Part shown: piece by piece, positions 3,744 to 64,000 of the stretch
Numbering within the stretch: position 1 is the stretch's first letter
Layout of the letters: the number at the start of each line of letters is the position of its first letter
Assembly: GCA_033551855.1 (NCBI GenBank)
Contig: JAWSUI010000010.1
Span: forward strand, 24,273-88,272
Direction: 5' to 3'
Origin: Deferrisomatales bacterium
GTDB taxonomy: Bacteria > Desulfobacterota > Deferrisomatia > Deferrisomatales > JACRMM01
DNA length: 64,000 nt
Notes under the pieces: model-generated
What the model was told of the DNA's origin: nothing
Database searches by the model: none
The model's input: only the letters and a program-made list of their open reading frames with translations
Made by a program: the position numbers and the translations under genes

Positions 3744-3778
3744 TCACGATTCACGATTCACCATTCACCCTTCACGGG
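3744..3778. repeat. Short heptamer tandem repeat (TCAC(G/C)(A/C)T-like, about 5 units)
   Basis: tcacgat tcacgat tcaccat tcaccct tcacggg, mostly intergenic; the last unit overlaps the stop of the next gene. Confidence 0.7.
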
Positions 3779-5172
3779 CCGGGCGGCAGGACCTTGCCGG
3801 GGTTGAGAATCCCCCGGGGATCGAGCGCGTGCTTCAGGAGGTGCATGAGCTCGAGCCCGGGGCCGTGCTCCCGGTGCAGGAACTTGCGCTTGCCGAGGCC
3901 GACCCCGTGCTCCCCGGTCGCGGTTCCCCCCAGGGCCAGCGCCGCCTCCACGACCTCGGCGTTCGCCTCCTGGATCGCCGCCCACGCGCCCGTGTCCTCC
4001 AGTGCCCCCAGGATGAGGCAGTGGAGGTTCCCGTCCCCGGCGTGGCCGAAGATGTACCCGGTGAGGCCGCGGCGGTCCACGGCCCCCCGGGCCCGGGCGG
4101 CGAGCTCCGGGTAGCGGCTCCGGGGAACTGCTGCGTCCACGATCAGGATGCCGTGCCCGGGATGGGCCTCCCGGATGGTGCGGTACGCCCGGTGGCGGGC
4201 ATCCCAGAGGCGGGCTCGCTCGTCCGGGCCCACCCCTGCGTCGAAGGTGAGGGCCCCCTCGGACCGGCAGAGCTCCTCCACTATCCCCACGTCGGCCGCG
4301 AGCCCGGCCCGGCTGGAGCCGTGGAACTCCAGGAACAGGAGGGGGTGCGGGGGCAGGCCGAGCCGGGCCGCGGCCTCCACGGTGCGCACCGTCACGTCGT
4401 CGAGGAACTCGCAGGCCGCCGGGCCGAGGCCCGACGCCATCACAGCGGTCACCGCCCGGGTCGCAGAGCCCGCGTCGGGAAAGGCTGCCAGGGCGGTCAT
4501 CACCTCCGGGGGCAGGGGCGCGAGCTCCAAGGTGATGCGGGTGAAGACCCCCAGGGTGCCCTCGCTCCCCACGAAGAGCCCCGCCGTGTCGTAACCCGAG
4601 GAGGACTTGTGGGCCAGGGTGCCCACCTCGACGCGCCGTCCGTCGGCCAGGGCCACCTCCAGGCGTTTGACGTAGCGGTTGGTGGAGCCGTAGCGCACCG
4701 TGCGGATGCCCGAGGCGTTGGTGGCCACCATCCCCCCCAGGCTCGCGGAGGCCCCGGGGTCGGGGGGGAAGAAGAGACCCGTGCGCAGGCGGTTGAGCTC
4801 GGTGTTGAGATCCGTGTAGAGGACCCCGGGCTCCGCCACCACCAGGAAGTCCTCGGGCCGGATGTCGAGCACCCGGTTCATCTGGGCGAAGTCGAGCACG
4901 AGCCCCCCCGCGACGGGAATGGCGGCTCCCTCGACCCCGGTGCCCGCCCCCCACGGGGTCACCGGGACGCCGCGCTCGAAGGCCCACTCCAGGGCACGAC
5001 TCACCTCCCCGGCTTCCACCGGCCAAACCACCGCCTCGGGCCGGCGGGCCTCGTGGAAGGACTCGTCCCGGCTGTGGAGATCCAGGACCGACGCACCCCG
5101 GGAGACGCGCTCGGGGGGGAAGACGGTCTCCAGCACCCGGAAATCGGCATCGGAGAGAGGGGGGCGGGTCAT
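3772..5172 (-). CDS. FAD-binding oxidoreductase (D-lactate dehydrogenase/GlcD family)
   Basis: PDPGASASLGGMVATNASG, GSEGTLG, FGHAGDGNLH, TGEHGVG and LDPRGILNPGK motifs. The start overlaps the upstream stop. Confidence 0.9.
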   Translation of the reverse strand: MTRPPLSDADFRVLETVFPPERVSRGASVLDLHSRDESFHEARRPEAVVWPVEAGEVSRALEWAFERGVPVTPWGAGTGVEGAAIPVAGGLVLDFAQMNRVLDIRPEDFLVVAEPGVLYTDLNTELNRLRTGLFFPPDPGASASLGGMVATNASGIRTVRYGSTNRYVKRLEVALADGRRVEVGTLAHKSSSGYDTAGLFVGSEGTLGVFTRITLELAPLPPEVMTALAAFPDAGSATRAVTAVMASGLGPAACEFLDDVTVRTVEAAARLGLPPHPLLFLEFHGSSRAGLAADVGIVEELCRSEGALTFDAGVGPDERARLWDARHRAYRTIREAHPGHGILIVDAAVPRSRYPELAARARGAVDRRGLTGYIFGHAGDGNLHCLILGALEDTGAWAAIQEANAEVVEAALALGGTATGEHGVGLGKRKFLHREHGPGLELMHLLKHALDPRGILNPGKVLPPGP

Positions 5173-10598: not shown

Positions 10599-10846
10599 CG
10601 GGCCTCCAGAAGTGGTCCCTGACTTGTAGCACTCGACCACGCCTGCCGCAACTGCCCAGCAACCCTCGGAATCCACCGTCTGGCGACGAGCGGGCGGCAG
10701 GGGGCCCTGGATCCGCGCCCTCCCGAACCCCATGAGACTCCGGACCGGTGGTCCCGGGTTCCTCCCAGCGGTTTACCCGACCGGGGGCGCGTGGTACCGT
10801 TCCGCGGACGGTGCCGCACCCAACCTCTCGACCCAAGAGGATACCC

Positions 10847-14898: not shown

Positions 14899-15789
14899 TC
14901 AGCCCCGGGCCCTGGGCTCGGCCCGGACCATCAGGAAGAAGATCACCCCCAGCACCAGGAGGGAGGCCAGGAGCAGGGCGAAGATCACCGGCTCCGGGTG
15001 GTCGAGGGCCGCGATGAAGAGCTTGCGGATGAAGGCCACGAGGGCGAGCTCGAGGAAGAGCCTCACGTGGAACTTCCCCCCCCGAAGATGGTCCACTTCG
15101 GCTTGGAGCAGCTCGATCATCATCCAGAGCAGGAGGAGCGACCCCAGCGACTGGATCACACCCCGGGCGAGATCTGTCCCGAAGGCGTGGACGATGTCGG
15201 ATACGAAGAGGCTCAGGACCCCGACCGCCATGGCCAGGAGCCCGACCATGAGGAGGAGGTTGAGGCCGTGCAGCAGCCGCTCTGCCCAACGCACCAGAAC
15301 GGACTCGAACCGACGGGACAGAAAGACGTTCTTGAGCTCTTCCTCGCGGTAGGAGCTCGTCAGGACGTCGAGGTGGAGGTCGAGCGCCTTGTCCAGAGTC
15401 GCCACCAGGGCGTCGCGCTCGCGAGGGTCCGGCACCTGAGCCGCCACGTGCCGGCTGCAAAATGATCGGATGAAGTGCATGGCGGCGTTCACGAAGTGTC
15501 CGGGCAGGCCGATCTTCACGTGCACCTTGCCGATGCGCTCGAGCCGGCGCAGGAGACGGTTGTCATACTCCGCCGCCAGCAGATCACGGAACCAGCCCTT
15601 GATGGTGGTCTTGCGCCGTTCCACGGCCTCGGGGGTCTCGAAGTAGCGGGCGGTCTGGGGGTCTTCCGCCAGGTAGTCGTAAAACTCGTCGGCCAGGGAA
15701 TCCGCTGCCGGGAGCAGGAGCTCTGCCAGGCGCGGCAGGTTCTTCTCATCCACTGGGCCGAACCGATAGTCCCGCAGGACCTCCTTCAT
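14899..15789 (-). CDS. Protoglobin/globin-sensor domain fused to a PsiE-like membrane domain
   Basis: Globin-like FYDYL...RIGKVHVKIGL. The C-terminal four TMs contain FLELALVAFIRKL (PsiE-like). Start uncertain (15789 or 15798). Confidence 0.8.
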   Translation of the reverse strand: MKEVLRDYRFGPVDEKNLPRLAELLLPAADSLADEFYDYLAEDPQTARYFETPEAVERRKTTIKGWFRDLLAAEYDNRLLRRLERIGKVHVKIGLPGHFVNAAMHFIRSFCSRHVAAQVPDPRERDALVATLDKALDLHLDVLTSSYREEELKNVFLSRRFESVLVRWAERLLHGLNLLLMVGLLAMAVGVLSLFVSDIVHAFGTDLARGVIQSLGSLLLLWMMIELLQAEVDHLRGGKFHVRLFLELALVAFIRKLFIAALDHPEPVIFALLLASLLVLGVIFFLMVRAEPRARG

Positions 15790-20638: not shown

Positions 20639-20778
20639 GGGTTTCACCTCCGTCGCATGCATCTCCCTCCCTGGGAAGGGGCGATGTTTTATAACACCGG
20701 AGGCGCCGTGAGGCAACCGAAAGGTACGGTCCGGGCTCCACCATCATATTCTCCGCCGGGGCCGGGGAGCCTGGGAGC

Positions 20779-20880
20779 GCAGCCCCGCACCGCCTCGACC
20801 GACCCACCGAGTCCGGGGGCGACGAGTGAATCCCGGCGCACCGGGGCCTGCGGGGACACCCCGTCGAATCGCGGCAGGCC
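20779..20880 (+). repeat. Dispersed degenerate repeat family B, copy 2
   Basis: GCAGCCCCGCACCGCCTCGACCGACCC...CCCGGCGCACCGGGGCCTGC.GGGACACCCC.TCGAAT. Confidence 0.7.
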
Positions 20881-20917
20881 GCGGTGCGAAGCGGAGGGGC
20901 GCCCCGGCGCGGCCCAC

Positions 20918-22096
20918 GTGCCGGGCGGTGGGTCCCGGACGGGGGACACGGGCGGGCACCGGCGGGGGAGCATCTCGGGGGAGGGCATCACCCTCGGCGG
21001 GAGCCTGATCAACGTCGCGCTGGTGTTGGTGAAGGGCGCCGCTGGCACCGTGGGGCAAAGTGCCGCCCTCGTCGCCGACGCCCTCCACTCCCTCTCGGAC
21101 CTGGCCAGCGACCTCGTCGTGCTCCTCGGGTACCGGGTCGGCCGAAGGCCGCAGGACCCCACCCACCCGTACGGTCACGGGAAGGTGGAGACGCTCTCCA
21201 CGGCGGTGGTGGGAGCCATCCTCGTGGCCGTCGGGCTGGGCATGGGCTCCGGGGCGCTGCGGTCCCTGCTCTCCCCCGACCCGCTCCCCCTGCCGGGACG
21301 GGTCGCCCTGTGGGCGGCGGCAGCCTCGCTCCTGGCCAAGGAGATCCTCTACCAGTGGACCGCACGGGTCGCCCGGAGCGAGGACAGTCGGCTCCTCCTG
21401 GCCAACGCCTGGCACCACCGCTCCGATGCCCTCTCCTCCGCGGCTGCGCTCGCCGGGGTGGCGGGGGCCCGTTGGGGCGCCCCCTGGATGGATCCCGCCG
21501 GCGCGCTGGTGGTGTGTCTCTTCGTGATCAAGGTGGGGTGGGATCTGGGCTGGCAGGCGACCCGGGAGCTGGTGGACACGGCGCCGGACCGGGAGCTGCT
21601 CGAGCGCCTGGCCGCGGCGGTTTCCCGGGTCGAGGGGGTAAGGAGCCACCACGACCTGCGGGCGCGCCGCCTCGGCAAGGACATCCTCGTGGACGTGGAC
21701 ATCGAGGTGGACCCGGAGCTCAGCGTGGTCCAGGGCCACGACCTGGCCCGGGCCGTGCGCCAGGAGATGCTGCAGGGCGTCAAGGGGGTCCGGGACGCCA
21801 TGGTCCACGTGGAGCCCGTGGGCGCCCGGGAAGGGGGCATACACTCCCCCGCCGGCCGCTGGGGCATCCTGGGGGCGGCCGAGGCGATCGCCCGACGCAC
21901 CCCCGGGGTGCTCGGCTTCCACAAGACCCGCGTCGTACCCCTGGAGAGCGGCTACCTCCTCAACATCCACATCGAGGTGGCCCCTGCCCTTGCCCTCCAG
22001 GAGGCGCACGCCGTGGCGCACCGGCTCGAAGAAGCCGTACGGGCCCTGCCCGGCATCGTCGACGCCGTGGTCCACGTGGACATCCACGGGGAGTAA
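20918..22096 (+). CDS. Cation diffusion facilitator transporter with two C-terminal dimerisation domains
   Basis: ADALHSLSD, HPYGHGKVE and AWHHRSD motifs; two ZT_dimer-like repeats ending MVHVEP and VVHVD. Start approximate. Confidence 0.88.
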   Translation: MPGGGSRTGDTGGHRRGSISGEGITLGGSLINVALVLVKGAAGTVGQSAALVADALHSLSDLASDLVVLLGYRVGRRPQDPTHPYGHGKVETLSTAVVGAILVAVGLGMGSGALRSLLSPDPLPLPGRVALWAAAASLLAKEILYQWTARVARSEDSRLLLANAWHHRSDALSSAAALAGVAGARWGAPWMDPAGALVVCLFVIKVGWDLGWQATRELVDTAPDRELLERLAAAVSRVEGVRSHHDLRARRLGKDILVDVDIEVDPELSVVQGHDLARAVRQEMLQGVKGVRDAMVHVEPVGAREGGIHSPAGRWGILGAAEAIARRTPGVLGFHKTRVVPLESGYLLNIHIEVAPALALQEAHAVAHRLEEAVRALPGIVDAVVHVDIHGE

Positions 22097-27058: not shown

Positions 27059-27401
27059 ACTGCCTCCCCCTCGACAGGACCCTTCCTGACTGGCGGCGGG
27101 GGAGGGGCCGGTGGGCGGTGGCCGGCGCGAGCGGTAGATATTGGCCGAAGTGGGGGAAGATTTCAACGACGAGTCTGCCAACACGACGAGTCTGGCCCCG
27201 GACCCCCCGCCTCCTCGGCAAGCGGGGGCCGGGGGCCCCGCCGGTCGCCCCGGCCACTGCGGCGATGCGAAGTGGGGGGGCCGAGAAGGCCCCGGTGCGC
27301 CGCTTCACCCGTTTGCGTCGGGCTCGGCGAGTCGGTCGTTGCAGGACGGGGCTGCCCTCCGGGGCTTCCGGCCCCCGCCTCACGAGGCGGGCCATATTTT
27401 G

Positions 27402-43039: not shown

Positions 43040-43185
43040 AGAAGCGCCACCCATCGACCGAGGCGCAGAAACCGATCGGGACCGGTGAAGCTCGGCGCAC
43101 CCGGTCCCCCGGTGGCCAACGTTTCGACGTGCCGCGGATTGCGGGGCGAAACGCAGGGGCTCCCGGACTCCGCTTGCCGACCAGC
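43040..43185 (+). repeat. Dispersed degenerate repeat family B, copy 4
   Basis: GCCGCGGATTGCGGGGCGAAACGCAGGGGCTCCCGGACTCCGCTTGCCGACCAG closely matches about 2627-2680. Confidence 0.65.
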
Positions 43186-43246
43186 CGGTGGATCCAGGCT
43201 GGGCGACCCCGTTGCCCGGCCTGAGCCGGCGTGGTAGCTTCGGCCC

Positions 43247-60237: not shown

Positions 60238-61194
60238 ATGGAATCCAAGCTCCTCGACCTGCCGGCGGCCGCCGCCCTCGTGCCCAACGGAGCCTCAGTC
60301 TCCATCGGCGGCTTCACGAGCCAGCGCCACCCCACCGCGCTCCTGCGGCAGCTCGTGCGCCGCCGGGTCCGGGACCTCGCCGTCTACTGCCACTCGGCCG
60401 GGAGCGACGTGGACCTGCTCATCGGGGCCGGCTGCACGCGCCGGGTGGAGGGGGCCTACCTGGCCGACGGCGTCTTCTCGCCGATCGCCCCCAACTGGCG
60501 GCGCTTCGTTCAGGAGGGCCGCATCGCCTTCGAGGACTACTCCAACGCGGCCATGATGGCACGGTTCACCGCCGGCGCCATGGGCCTGCCGTTCTTCCCG
60601 ACCCGCTCCATGCTCGGCACCGACCTCCTGGAGAAGGAGGGTTTGACCCCCGACGCCCGGCGGGCAGACCCCGACGCGGCGCCCCGGAAGGCCGCGGTGA
60701 CCCGGTGCCCCTTCACCGGGGAGCCGGTGGTGCTCGTGCCGGCCCTGCGCACGGACCTCTGCCTGCTCCACGTCCAGAAGGCCAGCCCGCTGGGCCTCTT
60801 GCGAATCGAGGGTCAGGAGTTCCTGGACGTCCAGCAGGCCCTTGCGGCGCGCACGGTGATCGTCACCTGCGAGGAACTAGTGGACGACGAGGAGCTGCGC
60901 CGGGAGCCCGAGCGCAACCGCATCCCGCCCTTCGCCGTGCACGCCGTGGTCCACGTCCCCTTCGGCGCCCACCCCCACAGCGTGCACAACTGCTACGACT
61001 ACGACCCGGACCACCTGACGCTCTTCGCCCAGGCCGCCCGGTCCGACGACACCTTCGCAGAGTACCTGGAACGCTTCGTCTTTCGGCCGGCGGACCACGC
61101 GGCCTACCTCGAAGCCGTCGGGGGGGAGGCACGGCTCGACGCCCTGCGGGCGCGGTCGGGCCTCGGGTACAACCCGGAGCTCCGGAGAAGGTGA
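60238..61194 (+). CDS. CoA-transferase subunit A (glutaconate CoA-transferase-like)
   Basis: SIGGF, GAMGLPF.P, CPFTGE, LLHVQKA and PFGAHP motifs. Confidence 0.88.
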   Translation: MESKLLDLPAAAALVPNGASVSIGGFTSQRHPTALLRQLVRRRVRDLAVYCHSAGSDVDLLIGAGCTRRVEGAYLADGVFSPIAPNWRRFVQEGRIAFEDYSNAAMMARFTAGAMGLPFFPTRSMLGTDLLEKEGLTPDARRADPDAAPRKAAVTRCPFTGEPVVLVPALRTDLCLLHVQKASPLGLLRIEGQEFLDVQQALAARTVIVTCEELVDDEELRREPERNRIPPFAVHAVVHVPFGAHPHSVHNCYDYDPDHLTLFAQAARSDDTFAEYLERFVFRPADHAAYLEAVGGEARLDALRARSGLGYNPELRRR

Positions 61195-61205
61195 GGGGCG
61201 AGGCG

Positions 61206-61985
61206 ATGAGCGGGGATTTTTCGACCCTCGAGATCATGACGGTGGCCGCCGCCCGGGAGATCCGGGACCGGGAGGTCGTCTTCGCCGGCACCGGGCTGCC
61301 CATGCTCGGGGCCATGCTCGCCCAGCGCACCCACGCCCCCCGGTGCACCATCGTCTTCGAAGCCGGGGCGGTGGACCCCCAGATGCTCCACCTCCCCATG
61401 AGCGTGGGGGACTCCCGCACCCTGGTCGGCGCGGCCCAGGCCGCCGGCCTCCTGGACGCCTTCACTTACATCCTGCAGGGGGGCCGGGTGGACGTTGGCT
61501 TCCTGGGGGGTGCGGAGATCGACCGGTACGGCAACCTCAACTCCACGGCCCTCGGGGATTATCGCCTCCCCGCGGTGCGCTTCCCGGGAAGCGGCGGCTC
61601 CGCCGACGTGGCGGCCCTCTCGGGCCGCACCGTGGTCATCGCCCGTCACGAGCGCCGACGGTTCCCCGAACGGGTCCACTACCGCACCAGCCCCGGCTGG
61701 CTCGAGGGCGGCGACTCCCGGGAGCGGGCCGGGATCACCGGCGGCGGGCCGGCGGCCGTGGTCACGACCCTGGGGGTCGTTCGTTACCGTCCCGAGACCC
61801 GGGAACCCTACCTGGCCTCCTACCACCCGGGCACGACCCCGGAGGGGGTCCAGGCCGAGACCGCCTTTCCCCTCGACTGCTCCGACGCCTACGAGACCCC
61901 TCCCCCTACCCGGGAGGAGCTCGAGATCCTGCGCCGGGTCGTGGACCCCGAAGGGGTGTTTCTGCGGAGCCGGGAACGGGGGTAG
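61206..61985 (+). CDS. CoA-transferase subunit B (glutaconate CoA-transferase-like)
   Basis: VFAGTGLP, IVFEAG, GFLGGAEIDRYGNLNST and PGSGG motifs. Confidence 0.88.
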   Translation: MSGDFSTLEIMTVAAAREIRDREVVFAGTGLPMLGAMLAQRTHAPRCTIVFEAGAVDPQMLHLPMSVGDSRTLVGAAQAAGLLDAFTYILQGGRVDVGFLGGAEIDRYGNLNSTALGDYRLPAVRFPGSGGSADVAALSGRTVVIARHERRRFPERVHYRTSPGWLEGGDSRERAGITGGGPAAVVTTLGVVRYRPETREPYLASYHPGTTPEGVQAETAFPLDCSDAYETPPPTREELEILRRVVDPEGVFLRSRERG

Positions 61986-62159
61986 GGAAGGAGCCCTTCT
62001 CGCGAGGAGCTCCCGAACCGCCACCTCCGCAGCGCCTCCGTGCCCGTCGGCCTCGGTCCGCGAACATCCTTGCTCTTCCTCACCCGGACTGCCCTCGGGA
62101 GCAAGCAACCCGGACCCTGTCGGCCAGGACGACGCGGCGAGACTCGAGGGGGCGTGCGA

Positions 62160-62195
62160 GTGACCAACGACTTTCGGCGTCGAAGATCGGGCCAG
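62160..62195 (-). CRISPR. Isolated degenerate CRISPR repeat
   Basis: GTGACCAACGACTTTCGGCGTCGAAGATCGGGCCAG matches the array repeat at 30 of 36 positions, ungapped and in the same orientation. Confidence 0.8.
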
Positions 62196-62328
62196 GGCCC
62201 CCTTCCGGCTCTCGTCGGCCCGGCCCCGCACCCGATATACAGGGAACGGCGACTCCGGCGGGCCCCGCGGGACGGCGCACGGAGACCCCGCCGGGAAAGA
62301 CCGCGAGAAACGGCCCCTCGGAGCAGGC

Positions 62329-63693
62329 ATGCGAAACAAGGGTGACCCGCGAGACCCAACGGGAAGTCGGGAAGAACGGGGGCTTGCGCCGGGCACCCGG
62401 CCTGAACGAGCCCGCCGGAGTCCCGACCCCGGCACCGGGCGGGGAGCCCCTCCGGGTGCGCCCCCCCAGCCGGGCCCGCCCGCGGTTGCCTCCCGCACCC
62501 GTTGGGGCCTCGTGCTCCTCATCGTCGCCGTGGGCGTGTGCGCGGCGTTCCAGATCGGCAAGGTGCCCCCTGCCCTCACGGAGCTTCAGAGCAGCTTGGG
62601 CATCAGCCTCGTGGTGGGCGGCTGGGTGATCTCAACCTACAGCGCGGTGGGGTCCGTATGCGGCATCGCCATGGGGGCGGTCGGAGACCGCTTGGGCTAC
62701 CGCAGGACGTTGCTCTTCGGGGTCTCGTGCATCGGGGCGGGCAGCCTGCTCGGTAGCGCGGCGCCGGGGCCCGGCTGGCTCCTGGCGAGCCGCGCCCTCG
62801 AGGGTCTGGGCTTCATCCTGGTGGTCGTTTCCGCGCCGTCGCTCATCTTCCAGATCGTGCGGCCGTCGGATCTAGGGATCGCGTTCGGGCTGTGGAGCTG
62901 CTTCATGCCCGTGGGCACGTCGGCGATGATGCTGGCCTCGCCGGCGCTCCTGTCGCTCTTCGGGTGGCGCGGGGTTTGGGCGTGCAACGGCCTTCTCCTG
63001 CTCTCGGCAGGGGCCGCGTTCCACTACGCCACCCGAGGCCTACCGGGTCGGGGGGCGCTGCGTGCCGCGGCGCCCGGCAGGCTCTGGAGCAACGTGCGGG
63101 CGGTGGTCTCCTGCCCGGGTCCGGTGCTCCTCGCGGTCTCGTGGTCCATGTACACCACGACCTACATGGTCCTGATGGGGTTCCTGCCCACCCTGCTCAT
63201 GGCCGACGGCCACACGAGGGCCGCCGCCGCGGCCTTAACGGCCGCGGCGGTGGCGGTAAACGCGGCGGGCGCCCTGGGTGGCGGCTGGCTGCTGAAGCAC
63301 GGCGCCCCTCGCTGGGGTCTGATGGCCTTCAGCGGCGCCGTGAGCGGCCTGTGCATGGTGGGGATCTATAGTCCCGGGACCGCTCCTTGGCTGCGATACG
63401 GCCTGTGCGTCCTGTTTTCGGCAGTCGGCGGCCTCCAGCCGGCGGCCGTCCTCGGGGGAGCACCCCACTATGCCCCGACGCCCACCGCGGTCGCCACGAC
63501 CAACGGCTTCATCAACCAGTGCTCCTACGTCGGGATGGTGCTCGGCCCACCCGCCGCGGCGGCGCTCGCCTCGGCCAGCGGCGGGTGGCACAACACCCCG
63601 TGGATCCTTTCCTCGGGCGCAGCCATCTGGATCTCCTCCGCGCTCCTGCTCCGGCGGGTTGGCCCCGGGACGGACGCCACCCCCCGTCGATGA
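62329..63693 (+). CDS. MFS transporter (CynX/NimT-like)
   Basis: About 12 TMs; GAVGDRLGYRRTL motif A and LASRALEGLG. Start uncertain. Confidence 0.88.
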   Translation: MRNKGDPRDPTGSREERGLAPGTRPERARRSPDPGTGRGAPPGAPPQPGPPAVASRTRWGLVLLIVAVGVCAAFQIGKVPPALTELQSSLGISLVVGGWVISTYSAVGSVCGIAMGAVGDRLGYRRTLLFGVSCIGAGSLLGSAAPGPGWLLASRALEGLGFILVVVSAPSLIFQIVRPSDLGIAFGLWSCFMPVGTSAMMLASPALLSLFGWRGVWACNGLLLLSAGAAFHYATRGLPGRGALRAAAPGRLWSNVRAVVSCPGPVLLAVSWSMYTTTYMVLMGFLPTLLMADGHTRAAAAALTAAAVAVNAAGALGGGWLLKHGAPRWGLMAFSGAVSGLCMVGIYSPGTAPWLRYGLCVLFSAVGGLQPAAVLGGAPHYAPTPTAVATTNGFINQCSYVGMVLGPPAAAALASASGGWHNTPWILSSGAAIWISSALLLRRVGPGTDATPRR

Positions 63694-63696
63694 ACG

Positions 63697-63723
63697 GCCG
63701 GAAGCGAAGCCTGCCGGCGTTTT
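63697..63723 (+). terminator. Probable intrinsic terminator of the MFS gene
   Basis: GCCGG..AG-CGAAG-C..CCGGC stem followed by a T-run. Confidence 0.45.
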
Positions 63724-63729
63724 GGGGAA

Positions 63730-63907
63730 GTGCTCAACGCCTTTCGGCATCGAAGATCGTGTCAGTAGGGGGCCTGCCCTGCACCCAACGGGATAGGGAT
63801 GTGCTCAACGCCTTTCGGCATCGAAGATCGTGTCAGGGCGTCCGCAGGGGCAGGAGGGCGTTGACCGCGAGGTGCTCAACGCCTTTCGGCATCGAAGATC
63901 GTGTCAG
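63730..63907 (-). CRISPR. CRISPR mini-array: 3 identical 36-bp repeats and 2 spacers of 35 bp
   Basis: GTGCTCAACGCCTTTCGGCATCGAAGATCGTGTCAG at 63730, 63801 and 63872. The strand is inferred from the ...GGCGTTGAGCAC 3' end of related type I-B repeats. No cas genes in the window. Confidence 0.93.
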
Positions 63908-64000
63908 AGACAGAATGACCCAGTCCACGGAAACCCAAGAAAGTGCCAGCAATTCCCGGACCCCTCGGAAATGGCTCAAACACGCGCATCTGGCAGGGAC

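Follow-up and report, generated by a model that had tools for sequence, protein, structure and literature searches.

To our knowledge, the DNA known to interrupt CRISPR arrays consists of IS, phage or plasmid DNA. SiL-E1, as described in the available text of PMC3718332, is a 1.9-kb plasmid-derived pseudo-spacer located between identical repeats of CRISPR_2 in Sulfolobus islandicus LAL14/1. Prophage PhiAP1.1 integrates into CRISPR repeats of Streptococcus pyogenes (10.1101/2020.10.09.333658, available portion), and array fragmentation is reported in the accessible part of an Anabaena preprint (10.1101/2020.04.14.041012). The available portions of two other papers (PMC5640232, PMC8616872) contain nothing decisive. 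No report of an MFS gene inside a CRISPR array was found in the literature searched, which included few subscription papers and consisted of main texts without supplements. Diverged repeats standing alone between genes near a CRISPR-cas locus are described, in the text available, for CreA/CreR mini-arrays and Racr units (10.1101/2023.03.10.532045, 10.1101/2023.03.03.530964, PMC10651486); the first of these sources states that the CreR upstream repeat keeps its 8-nt handle. In the available text of the Shmakov preprint, target-less and unconserved copies near type III arrays are read as degraded repeats.

The window, that is, the whole 64,000-nucleotide stretch of DNA analyzed here, forms the final 64 kb of contig C10, in an assembly of 4.24 Mb with 69.6% G+C. 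At its end a gctB-like CoA-transferase subunit gene (61209-61985, plus strand; Pfam CoA_trans, E=3.6e-34), which is the left anchor of a variable site, is followed after 174 nt by a lone degenerate repeat (62160-62195, minus strand), after a further 133 nt by an MFS_1 ORF (62329-63693, plus strand) and, 36 nt beyond the ORF, by three perfect 36-nt repeats. The perfect repeats start at 63730, 63801 and 63872 and together with two 35-nt spacers form a trailer-side piece of the array (63730-63907, minus strand). A third 35-nt spacer and 4 bases of a fourth repeat follow (63908-63946, minus strand), at which point the array is cut by an IS end (63947-64000) that reaches the contig edge and also occurs on contigs C19 and C118. 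The lone copy is identical to the array repeat at 30 of 36 positions and shares the single orientation of the perfect copies. Between it and the first perfect repeat lie 1,534 bp (62196-63729, 72.6% G+C) in place of one spacer, where spacers of this array are normally 34-36 nt. These coordinates and counts agree with the initial annotation, which did not mention the third spacer, the repeat fragment or the IS end, nor the further repeats and cas genes on contig C7.

Both strands of the whole assembly were scored against the repeat. Fourteen sites scored 36/36 and one 30/36, no site scored 31-35 or 25-29, and background topped out at 24. Scores of 25-35 out of 36 are reached by the lone copy alone, and a chance match is excluded; by arithmetic, random placement within 2 kb of the array on the right strand would be expected in about 2 of 10,000 cases. 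A contig of a slightly different strain (one run of one study) covers 60973-63759 with 6 differing letters and one 12-nt deletion, which argues against an artefact of assembly joining. In the contigs of run X1, which drop rare variants, the lone and perfect repeats were nowhere joined as they would be after excision.

The cas genes are found on contig C7, which opens with an IS end unlike that of C10 and a 32-nt part-spacer; 11 perfect repeats and a leader come next and then, on the minus strand, cas2, cas4-cas1, cas5, cas7, cas8, cas3 and cas6. Every profile of the set Cas8a1/Cmx1, Cas7/DevR, Cas5/DevS, Cas6/Cmx6, Cas3, Cas1-MYXAN and Cas2 (TIGR03485, TIGR02585, TIGR02586, TIGR02807, TIGR01587/TIGR01596, TIGR03983 and TIGR01573, respectively) scores above its cut-off, and the system is a complete type I-B (MYXAN) system. 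The 36-mer repeats on C7 and at the end of C10 are identical, and by sequence the window repeats are assigned to the array beside the C7 cas genes. On the minus strand, each of the three perfect copies is hit by Rfam CRISPR-DR33, below the gathering threshold of that model; the lone copy has no Rfam match at E<=1. Because of the minus-strand DR33 match, and because the leader and cas genes are at the opposite end of the array on C7, the lone copy is on the trailer side in array orientation, as the initial annotation had proposed in assuming minus-strand transcription.

The array is interrupted by an IS end at the edge of each contig, between the leader and the three C10 repeats, one of them inside a repeat and the other inside a spacer. 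Treating the two as one pair was rejected: they are different ends with no common 8-10-nt target-site duplication, in contrast to four other pairs that have one. Part of the array may therefore be missing from the assembly. In G002, a member of the same genus, contig C18 unites the flanks seen on C10 and on C7, oriented alike; gctB is there ~880 bp from the gene for a thiamine-binding protein that flanks the cas block on C7, and the one unrelated ORF between them, read from sequence, is neither MFS nor CRISPR. From this arrangement C10 and C7 are very likely adjacent in the genome, the join itself being absent from the assembly.

Several other features of these contigs were observed. The IS ends at window positions 63943-64000 and C7 positions 1-86 are among 30 IS ends in the assembly with a common 12-nt terminus, in seven variants, and four pairs of IS ends share 9-bp target-site duplications. 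Between cas5 and cas1 (L001, the C7 locus, 3768-4597) a nucleotidyltransferase ORF (Pfam NTP_transf_2; MntA-like below cut-off) precedes an 88-aa ORF without a family, possibly an MNT-HEPN-type toxin-antitoxin pair in the cas operon. At ~10740-10790 of the same locus, an inverted repeat of 7 bp lies by an extended -10-like box, with one 8-mer present three times; located ~90 nt upstream of where cas6 probably starts, this may be an operator.

The lone copy differs from the array repeat at positions 4, 6, 17, 26, 32 and 33. Two of the six changes fall in the 5′ handle of 8 nt, and another, G26T, disrupts pair 19-26 at the center of the stem. In folding predictions, which are not a cleavage assay, the pair probability of the canonical hairpin is 1.0 for the array repeat and 0.0 for the lone copy, with or without flanks. 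To compare the copy with its family, public genomes were scanned for the 3′ core of 22 nt with a pattern that also admitted the letters of the lone copy, which returned at least 119 stretches, 80 of them among the matches listed. From the matches listed and the loci of two relatives, 28 arrays were taken, each with at least 3 repeats and a trailer flank of at least 2 kb. The last repeat is imperfect (30-35/36) in 13 of these 28 and perfect in 15 (among the matches listed), and worn last repeats are, on this comparison, normal in the family. The lone copy resembles such degenerate terminal repeats in its trailer-side, leader-distal position, its array orientation and its score of 30/36, within the range of those 13 arrays. 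That the contiguous block in the window ends in a perfect repeat is uninformative, since 15 of the 28 arrays do likewise.

The lone copy differs from other terminal repeats in two respects. It is displaced by 1,534 bp, whereas none of the 28 arrays (among the matches listed) has a displaced copy of at least 24/36 within up to 4 kb past the trailer, and its changes are scattered, whereas terminal-repeat changes in the family concentrate in the last five positions (17 of 34 among the matches listed). Four of its six changes are at positions where 31-32 of the 32 distinct family repeats (among the matches listed) agree, despite a search pattern that permitted the lone copy's letters. Its uniqueness in the genome, its position 1.5 kb from the trailer and its array orientation favor our preferred reading, which we hold to be somewhat better than an even bet: the lone copy would once have been the last repeat of the type I-B (MYXAN) array, until a gene-sized insertion stranded it and it decayed into what is probably a non-functional relic. 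The known decay of array ends is the most likely explanation for its divergence.

A possible second and much more decayed repeat in array orientation lies 84 nt past the lone copy (62040-62075, minus strand). Its match to the array repeat (20/36) is suggestive only, with p=0.0105 in ungapped shuffles, p=0.30 with gaps and p=0.116 against the lone copy, and scores of 20-24 are reached by 749 background sites genome-wide. A mini-array partner repeat one spacer away from the lone copy on either side was also sought and rejected; the best candidates matched at 17-18/36 at the wrong offset (gapped p>=0.18).

In other genomes, solitary members of this repeat family are common far from cas genes, and an ectopic origin of the lone copy is therefore possible. 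Among the matches listed, 15 of 22 loci with solitary or displaced family copies have no Cas match within up to 5 kb on each side, some of these loci being near contig ends. The copy would then be an ectopic repeat, or the remnant of an earlier related array, and the MFS gene and the CRISPR-cas block would have arrived separately, so that the present array was never split. We regard this as unlikely, at roughly the chance of a one in a handful draw. In its favor, CRISPR-positive genomes are described in the available text of 10.1101/2023.03.03.530964 as gaining and losing ectopic repeats dynamically, relatives differ at this site, and position 6 of the lone copy (C) fits the repeat of genome G010 and differs from that of its own array. 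Against it, 12 of the first 14 positions of the lone copy are this array's variant, in a 5′ region that is highly variable between genomes, and the copy is in array orientation on the trailer side. The syntenic site of G002 was also searched for a relic of the repeat; an 11-nt match over the lone-repeat edge was rejected, as it was reached by 139 of 1,000 shuffles, and p ranged from 0.08 to 0.96 in 24 tests.

The family loci without a Cas match are L090, L094, L111, L112, L121, L125, L127, L128, L137, L143, L145, L146, L149, L159 and L160, of which L094 and L128 are two-repeat units. The G010 array (L078 14061-17075) contains a duplicated block of ~20 spacers and a duplicated first spacer, either real or an assembly artefact.

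The gap between the lone copy and the perfect repeats contains, as had been noted at the outset, a full MFS ORF: it is unbroken over 454 codons from the first ATG (Pfam MFS_1, E=1.6e-32), its start and substrate being uncertain and all NCBIfam subfamily matches falling below cut-off. Most close homologues are 403-408 aa long. The GTG start of the gene in G001, the closest relative, corresponds to GCG at 62482, and translation of the studied ORF must consequently begin either upstream, at the ATG of 62329, or at an internal codon. The 12-nt deletion of the other strain is in-frame and within the N-terminal extension. The protein is 86% identical to its G001 orthologue, and a dN/dS of 0.20 over 399 codons indicates that this intact gene is under purifying selection. 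Its dS of 0.30 is inside the spread of three neighbors (0.22, 0.50 and 0.67), and its GC3 is 0.90, compared with 0.91-0.94 for gctB and gctA and 0.83-0.86 for cas8 and cas1. Fourteen MFS relatives from metagenome contigs are 36-41% identical. Taken together, the G001 orthology, dN/dS, dS and host-like GC3 point to a genus-native gene, under purifying selection, that has moved to this site from another location.

In G001 the MFS gene is located between a DEAD/DEAH-type helicase ORF and cheA (names taken from translations), and nothing in that genome matches the repeat pattern. A dispersed intergenic repeat of 80-200 nt, present in dozens of copies in G001 and G002, has one copy upstream of the G001 MFS gene; others are at C7 (L001) 15570-15780 and in the window near 2485-2674, 20737-20942, 27201-27382 and 43052-43202.

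The contents of the site between gctB and the thiamine-binding-protein gene vary between relatives. The gctB orthologues of G001, G002 and G004 precede other genes, and in none of 20 relatives of the order, several of them incomplete genomes, do the gctB and MFS matches share a contig. An MFS-less allele of the studied array was found neither among these 20 relatives nor in one run of strain contigs. Because no allele with the array and without the MFS gene was found, the insertion into the array is inferred and not observed. The initial annotation had named two findings that would speak against a gene-sized insert, namely similar degenerate repeats scattered through the genome and gctB-MFS synteny in relatives that lack repeats. 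The genome contains no such repeats, the next score after 30 being the background value of 24, and the relatives searched show no such synteny. Since neither was seen, a gene-sized insert in the array tail is the best reading; its route may have been either of those originally suggested, recombination or aberrant acquisition.

The segment from 62410 to 63705 is 88% identical in DNA to G001, and 62196-62405 has no significant match to the G001 DNA upstream of MFS. The homology ends 24 nt before the array repeat. By eye it can be followed as far as the repeat, an extension without statistical significance (p=0.10-0.45), and an exact end of MFS-flank homology at the repeat edge was rejected. A weak hairpin with four T follows the MFS stop (63692-63723, plus strand). 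It was initially taken for a probable terminator; a consensus scan found no terminator after the gene, and with a folding energy of -11.6 kcal/mol and z=0.15 the hairpin makes a doubtful terminator at best. Nor is it a spacer, because homology with the G001 MFS flank extends through the first 12 nt past the MFS stop.

These edges bear on a further explanation, in which the whole 1,534-bp gene cassette was integrated as a pseudo-spacer into a young array, by Cas4-Cas1-Cas2 or by repeat-mediated recombination, with duplication of the repeat, and was then pushed trailerward by growth at the leader end. SiL-E1, in the text available, offers a precedent, and repeat copies bound the segment on both sides with no recognizable leftover spacer, the MFS-flank homology running to within 24 nt of one of them. 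We nevertheless consider this explanation improbable due to the non-significant edge alignment, the normal spacer length of 34-36 nt, the host-type rather than mobile-element character of the DNA, and the 215 nt without known donor at the other end, owing to which precision like that of SiL-E1 cannot be demonstrated. The likeness to SiL-E1, as far as its description was available, consists of a strain-specific segment of 1.5-2 kb, of unknown route, that bears genes and lies between two repeats belonging to a single array. SiL-E1 is plasmid DNA that matches its donor up to both edges and is followed by further units, whereas here the cargo is a host-lineage transporter, the distal repeat is at 30/36, nothing intact lies beyond, and donor homology is firm for 62410-63705 only, with G001 as a stand-in donor. 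The two identical flanking repeats of SiL-E1 are likewise not found, the present ones scoring 36/36 and 30/36. Compared with PhiAP1.1 (available text), the locus is similar in that inserted DNA interrupts an array and separates its distal units, and dissimilar in that the segment contains no mobility gene, integrase, att site or phage gene, only the single transporter ORF.

The lone copy might instead be a functional crRNA-like regulator of the CreA/CreR type or a Racr-like decoy, processed by Cas6 and guiding or sequestering Cascade. The initial annotation had raised a regulatory RNA or Cas6 site; this found no support, with hairpin and handle damaged and no PAM-flanked target, and we likewise think a functional role improbable. 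Three guides were tested, namely the two 35-nt flanks of the lone copy and the 36-nt stretch that follows the 63730 repeat. The 35-nt flank after the lone copy agrees at 20 of 35 positions, with a 7-base seed run, with a site ~340 nt upstream of cas6. The score was equalled by random 35-mers in 1.4% of 5,000 trials, and joint thresholds set post hoc were reached in 5 of ~1,000. Note that this match has a CGC PAM, has its seed broken at positions 9-10 and is one of six pairs tried (3 guides × 2 regions). An AYG/AYN PAM was measured for the Myxan Cascade of Synechocystis PCC 6714 (PMC11096372, available text). With AYN borrowed from that system and at least 8 seed positions required, the downstream guide has no match near the locus, and the same filter leaves a single match, of the upstream-flank guide, inside a C7 coding region. 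For 16 guides (13 spacers or part-spacers and 3 flanks), no self-target rose above background.

No sigma-70-type promoter consensus was found in 61900-64000, by a scan that is insensitive in a G+C-rich genome, and the 24-nt repeat core pattern had no match in viral contigs. When the 10 spacers and part-spacer of C7, leaving out the window's three spacers, were compared with 50,697 phage records, 2 records were returned with one 29-nt haloarchaeal-virus match (E=0.07), which was taken as chance. The lone copy is neither beside cas6 nor between cas genes; its context is chromosomal and metabolic, with a cas-linked array 1.5 kb away. Like the CreA/CreR mini-arrays and Racr units described in the text available, it is a diverged standalone intergenic repeat near a CRISPR-cas locus. 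It differs from them in its damaged handle and stem (2 of 8 handle bases changed and a stem pair broken, whereas CreR keeps the handle in its upstream repeat) and in having no PAM-flanked promoter target (by the borrowed PAM), no promoter, no cas6 adjacency and no virus or plasmid location. The features of Racr and other solitary repeat units are also lacking: the copy is chromosomal, with 0 promoter-like sites, 0 viral matches and a cas-linked array near. A regulatory role draws some support from the weak second repeat downstream (62040-62075) and from L124, whose solitary post-cas5 repeat has the identical two handle changes.

L124 (2617-2652) and L095 (2850-2885), two unrelated MYXAN loci, each have one diverged repeat directly after cas5 and before cas1. 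These recurrent post-cas5 repeats are better candidates for regulation than the lone copy.

Returning to the stranded terminal repeat, the history we favor would be as follows. The array tail would originally have consisted of a repeat, a spacer and the terminal repeat. A 1.5-kb piece of host-lineage DNA with the MFS gene would have replaced or split the last spacer, presumably by ordinary illegitimate recombination at a site where genes are frequently swapped. The repeat thereby cut off would have been freed from selection for Cas6 processing and may then have gathered its six changes. Cas6 is predicted to cleave the three perfect copies and to cleave the lone copy poorly or not at all, and the MFS gene is predicted to be transcribed independently on the plus strand.

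If the segment did enter as a pseudo-spacer, arrays would be gene-capture sites carrying host genes along with the cas block, and the MFS segment would be a first spacer. Should the insert edges prove exact, this would be whole-gene capture by the CRISPR integration machinery in nature. As read here, the locus would be another case of an array end severed by insertion, mildly unusual in that its cargo is an intact host-lineage transporter without a mobility gene, and it suggests caution, as a solitary repeat beside the promoter region of a gene need not be a regulatory RNA.
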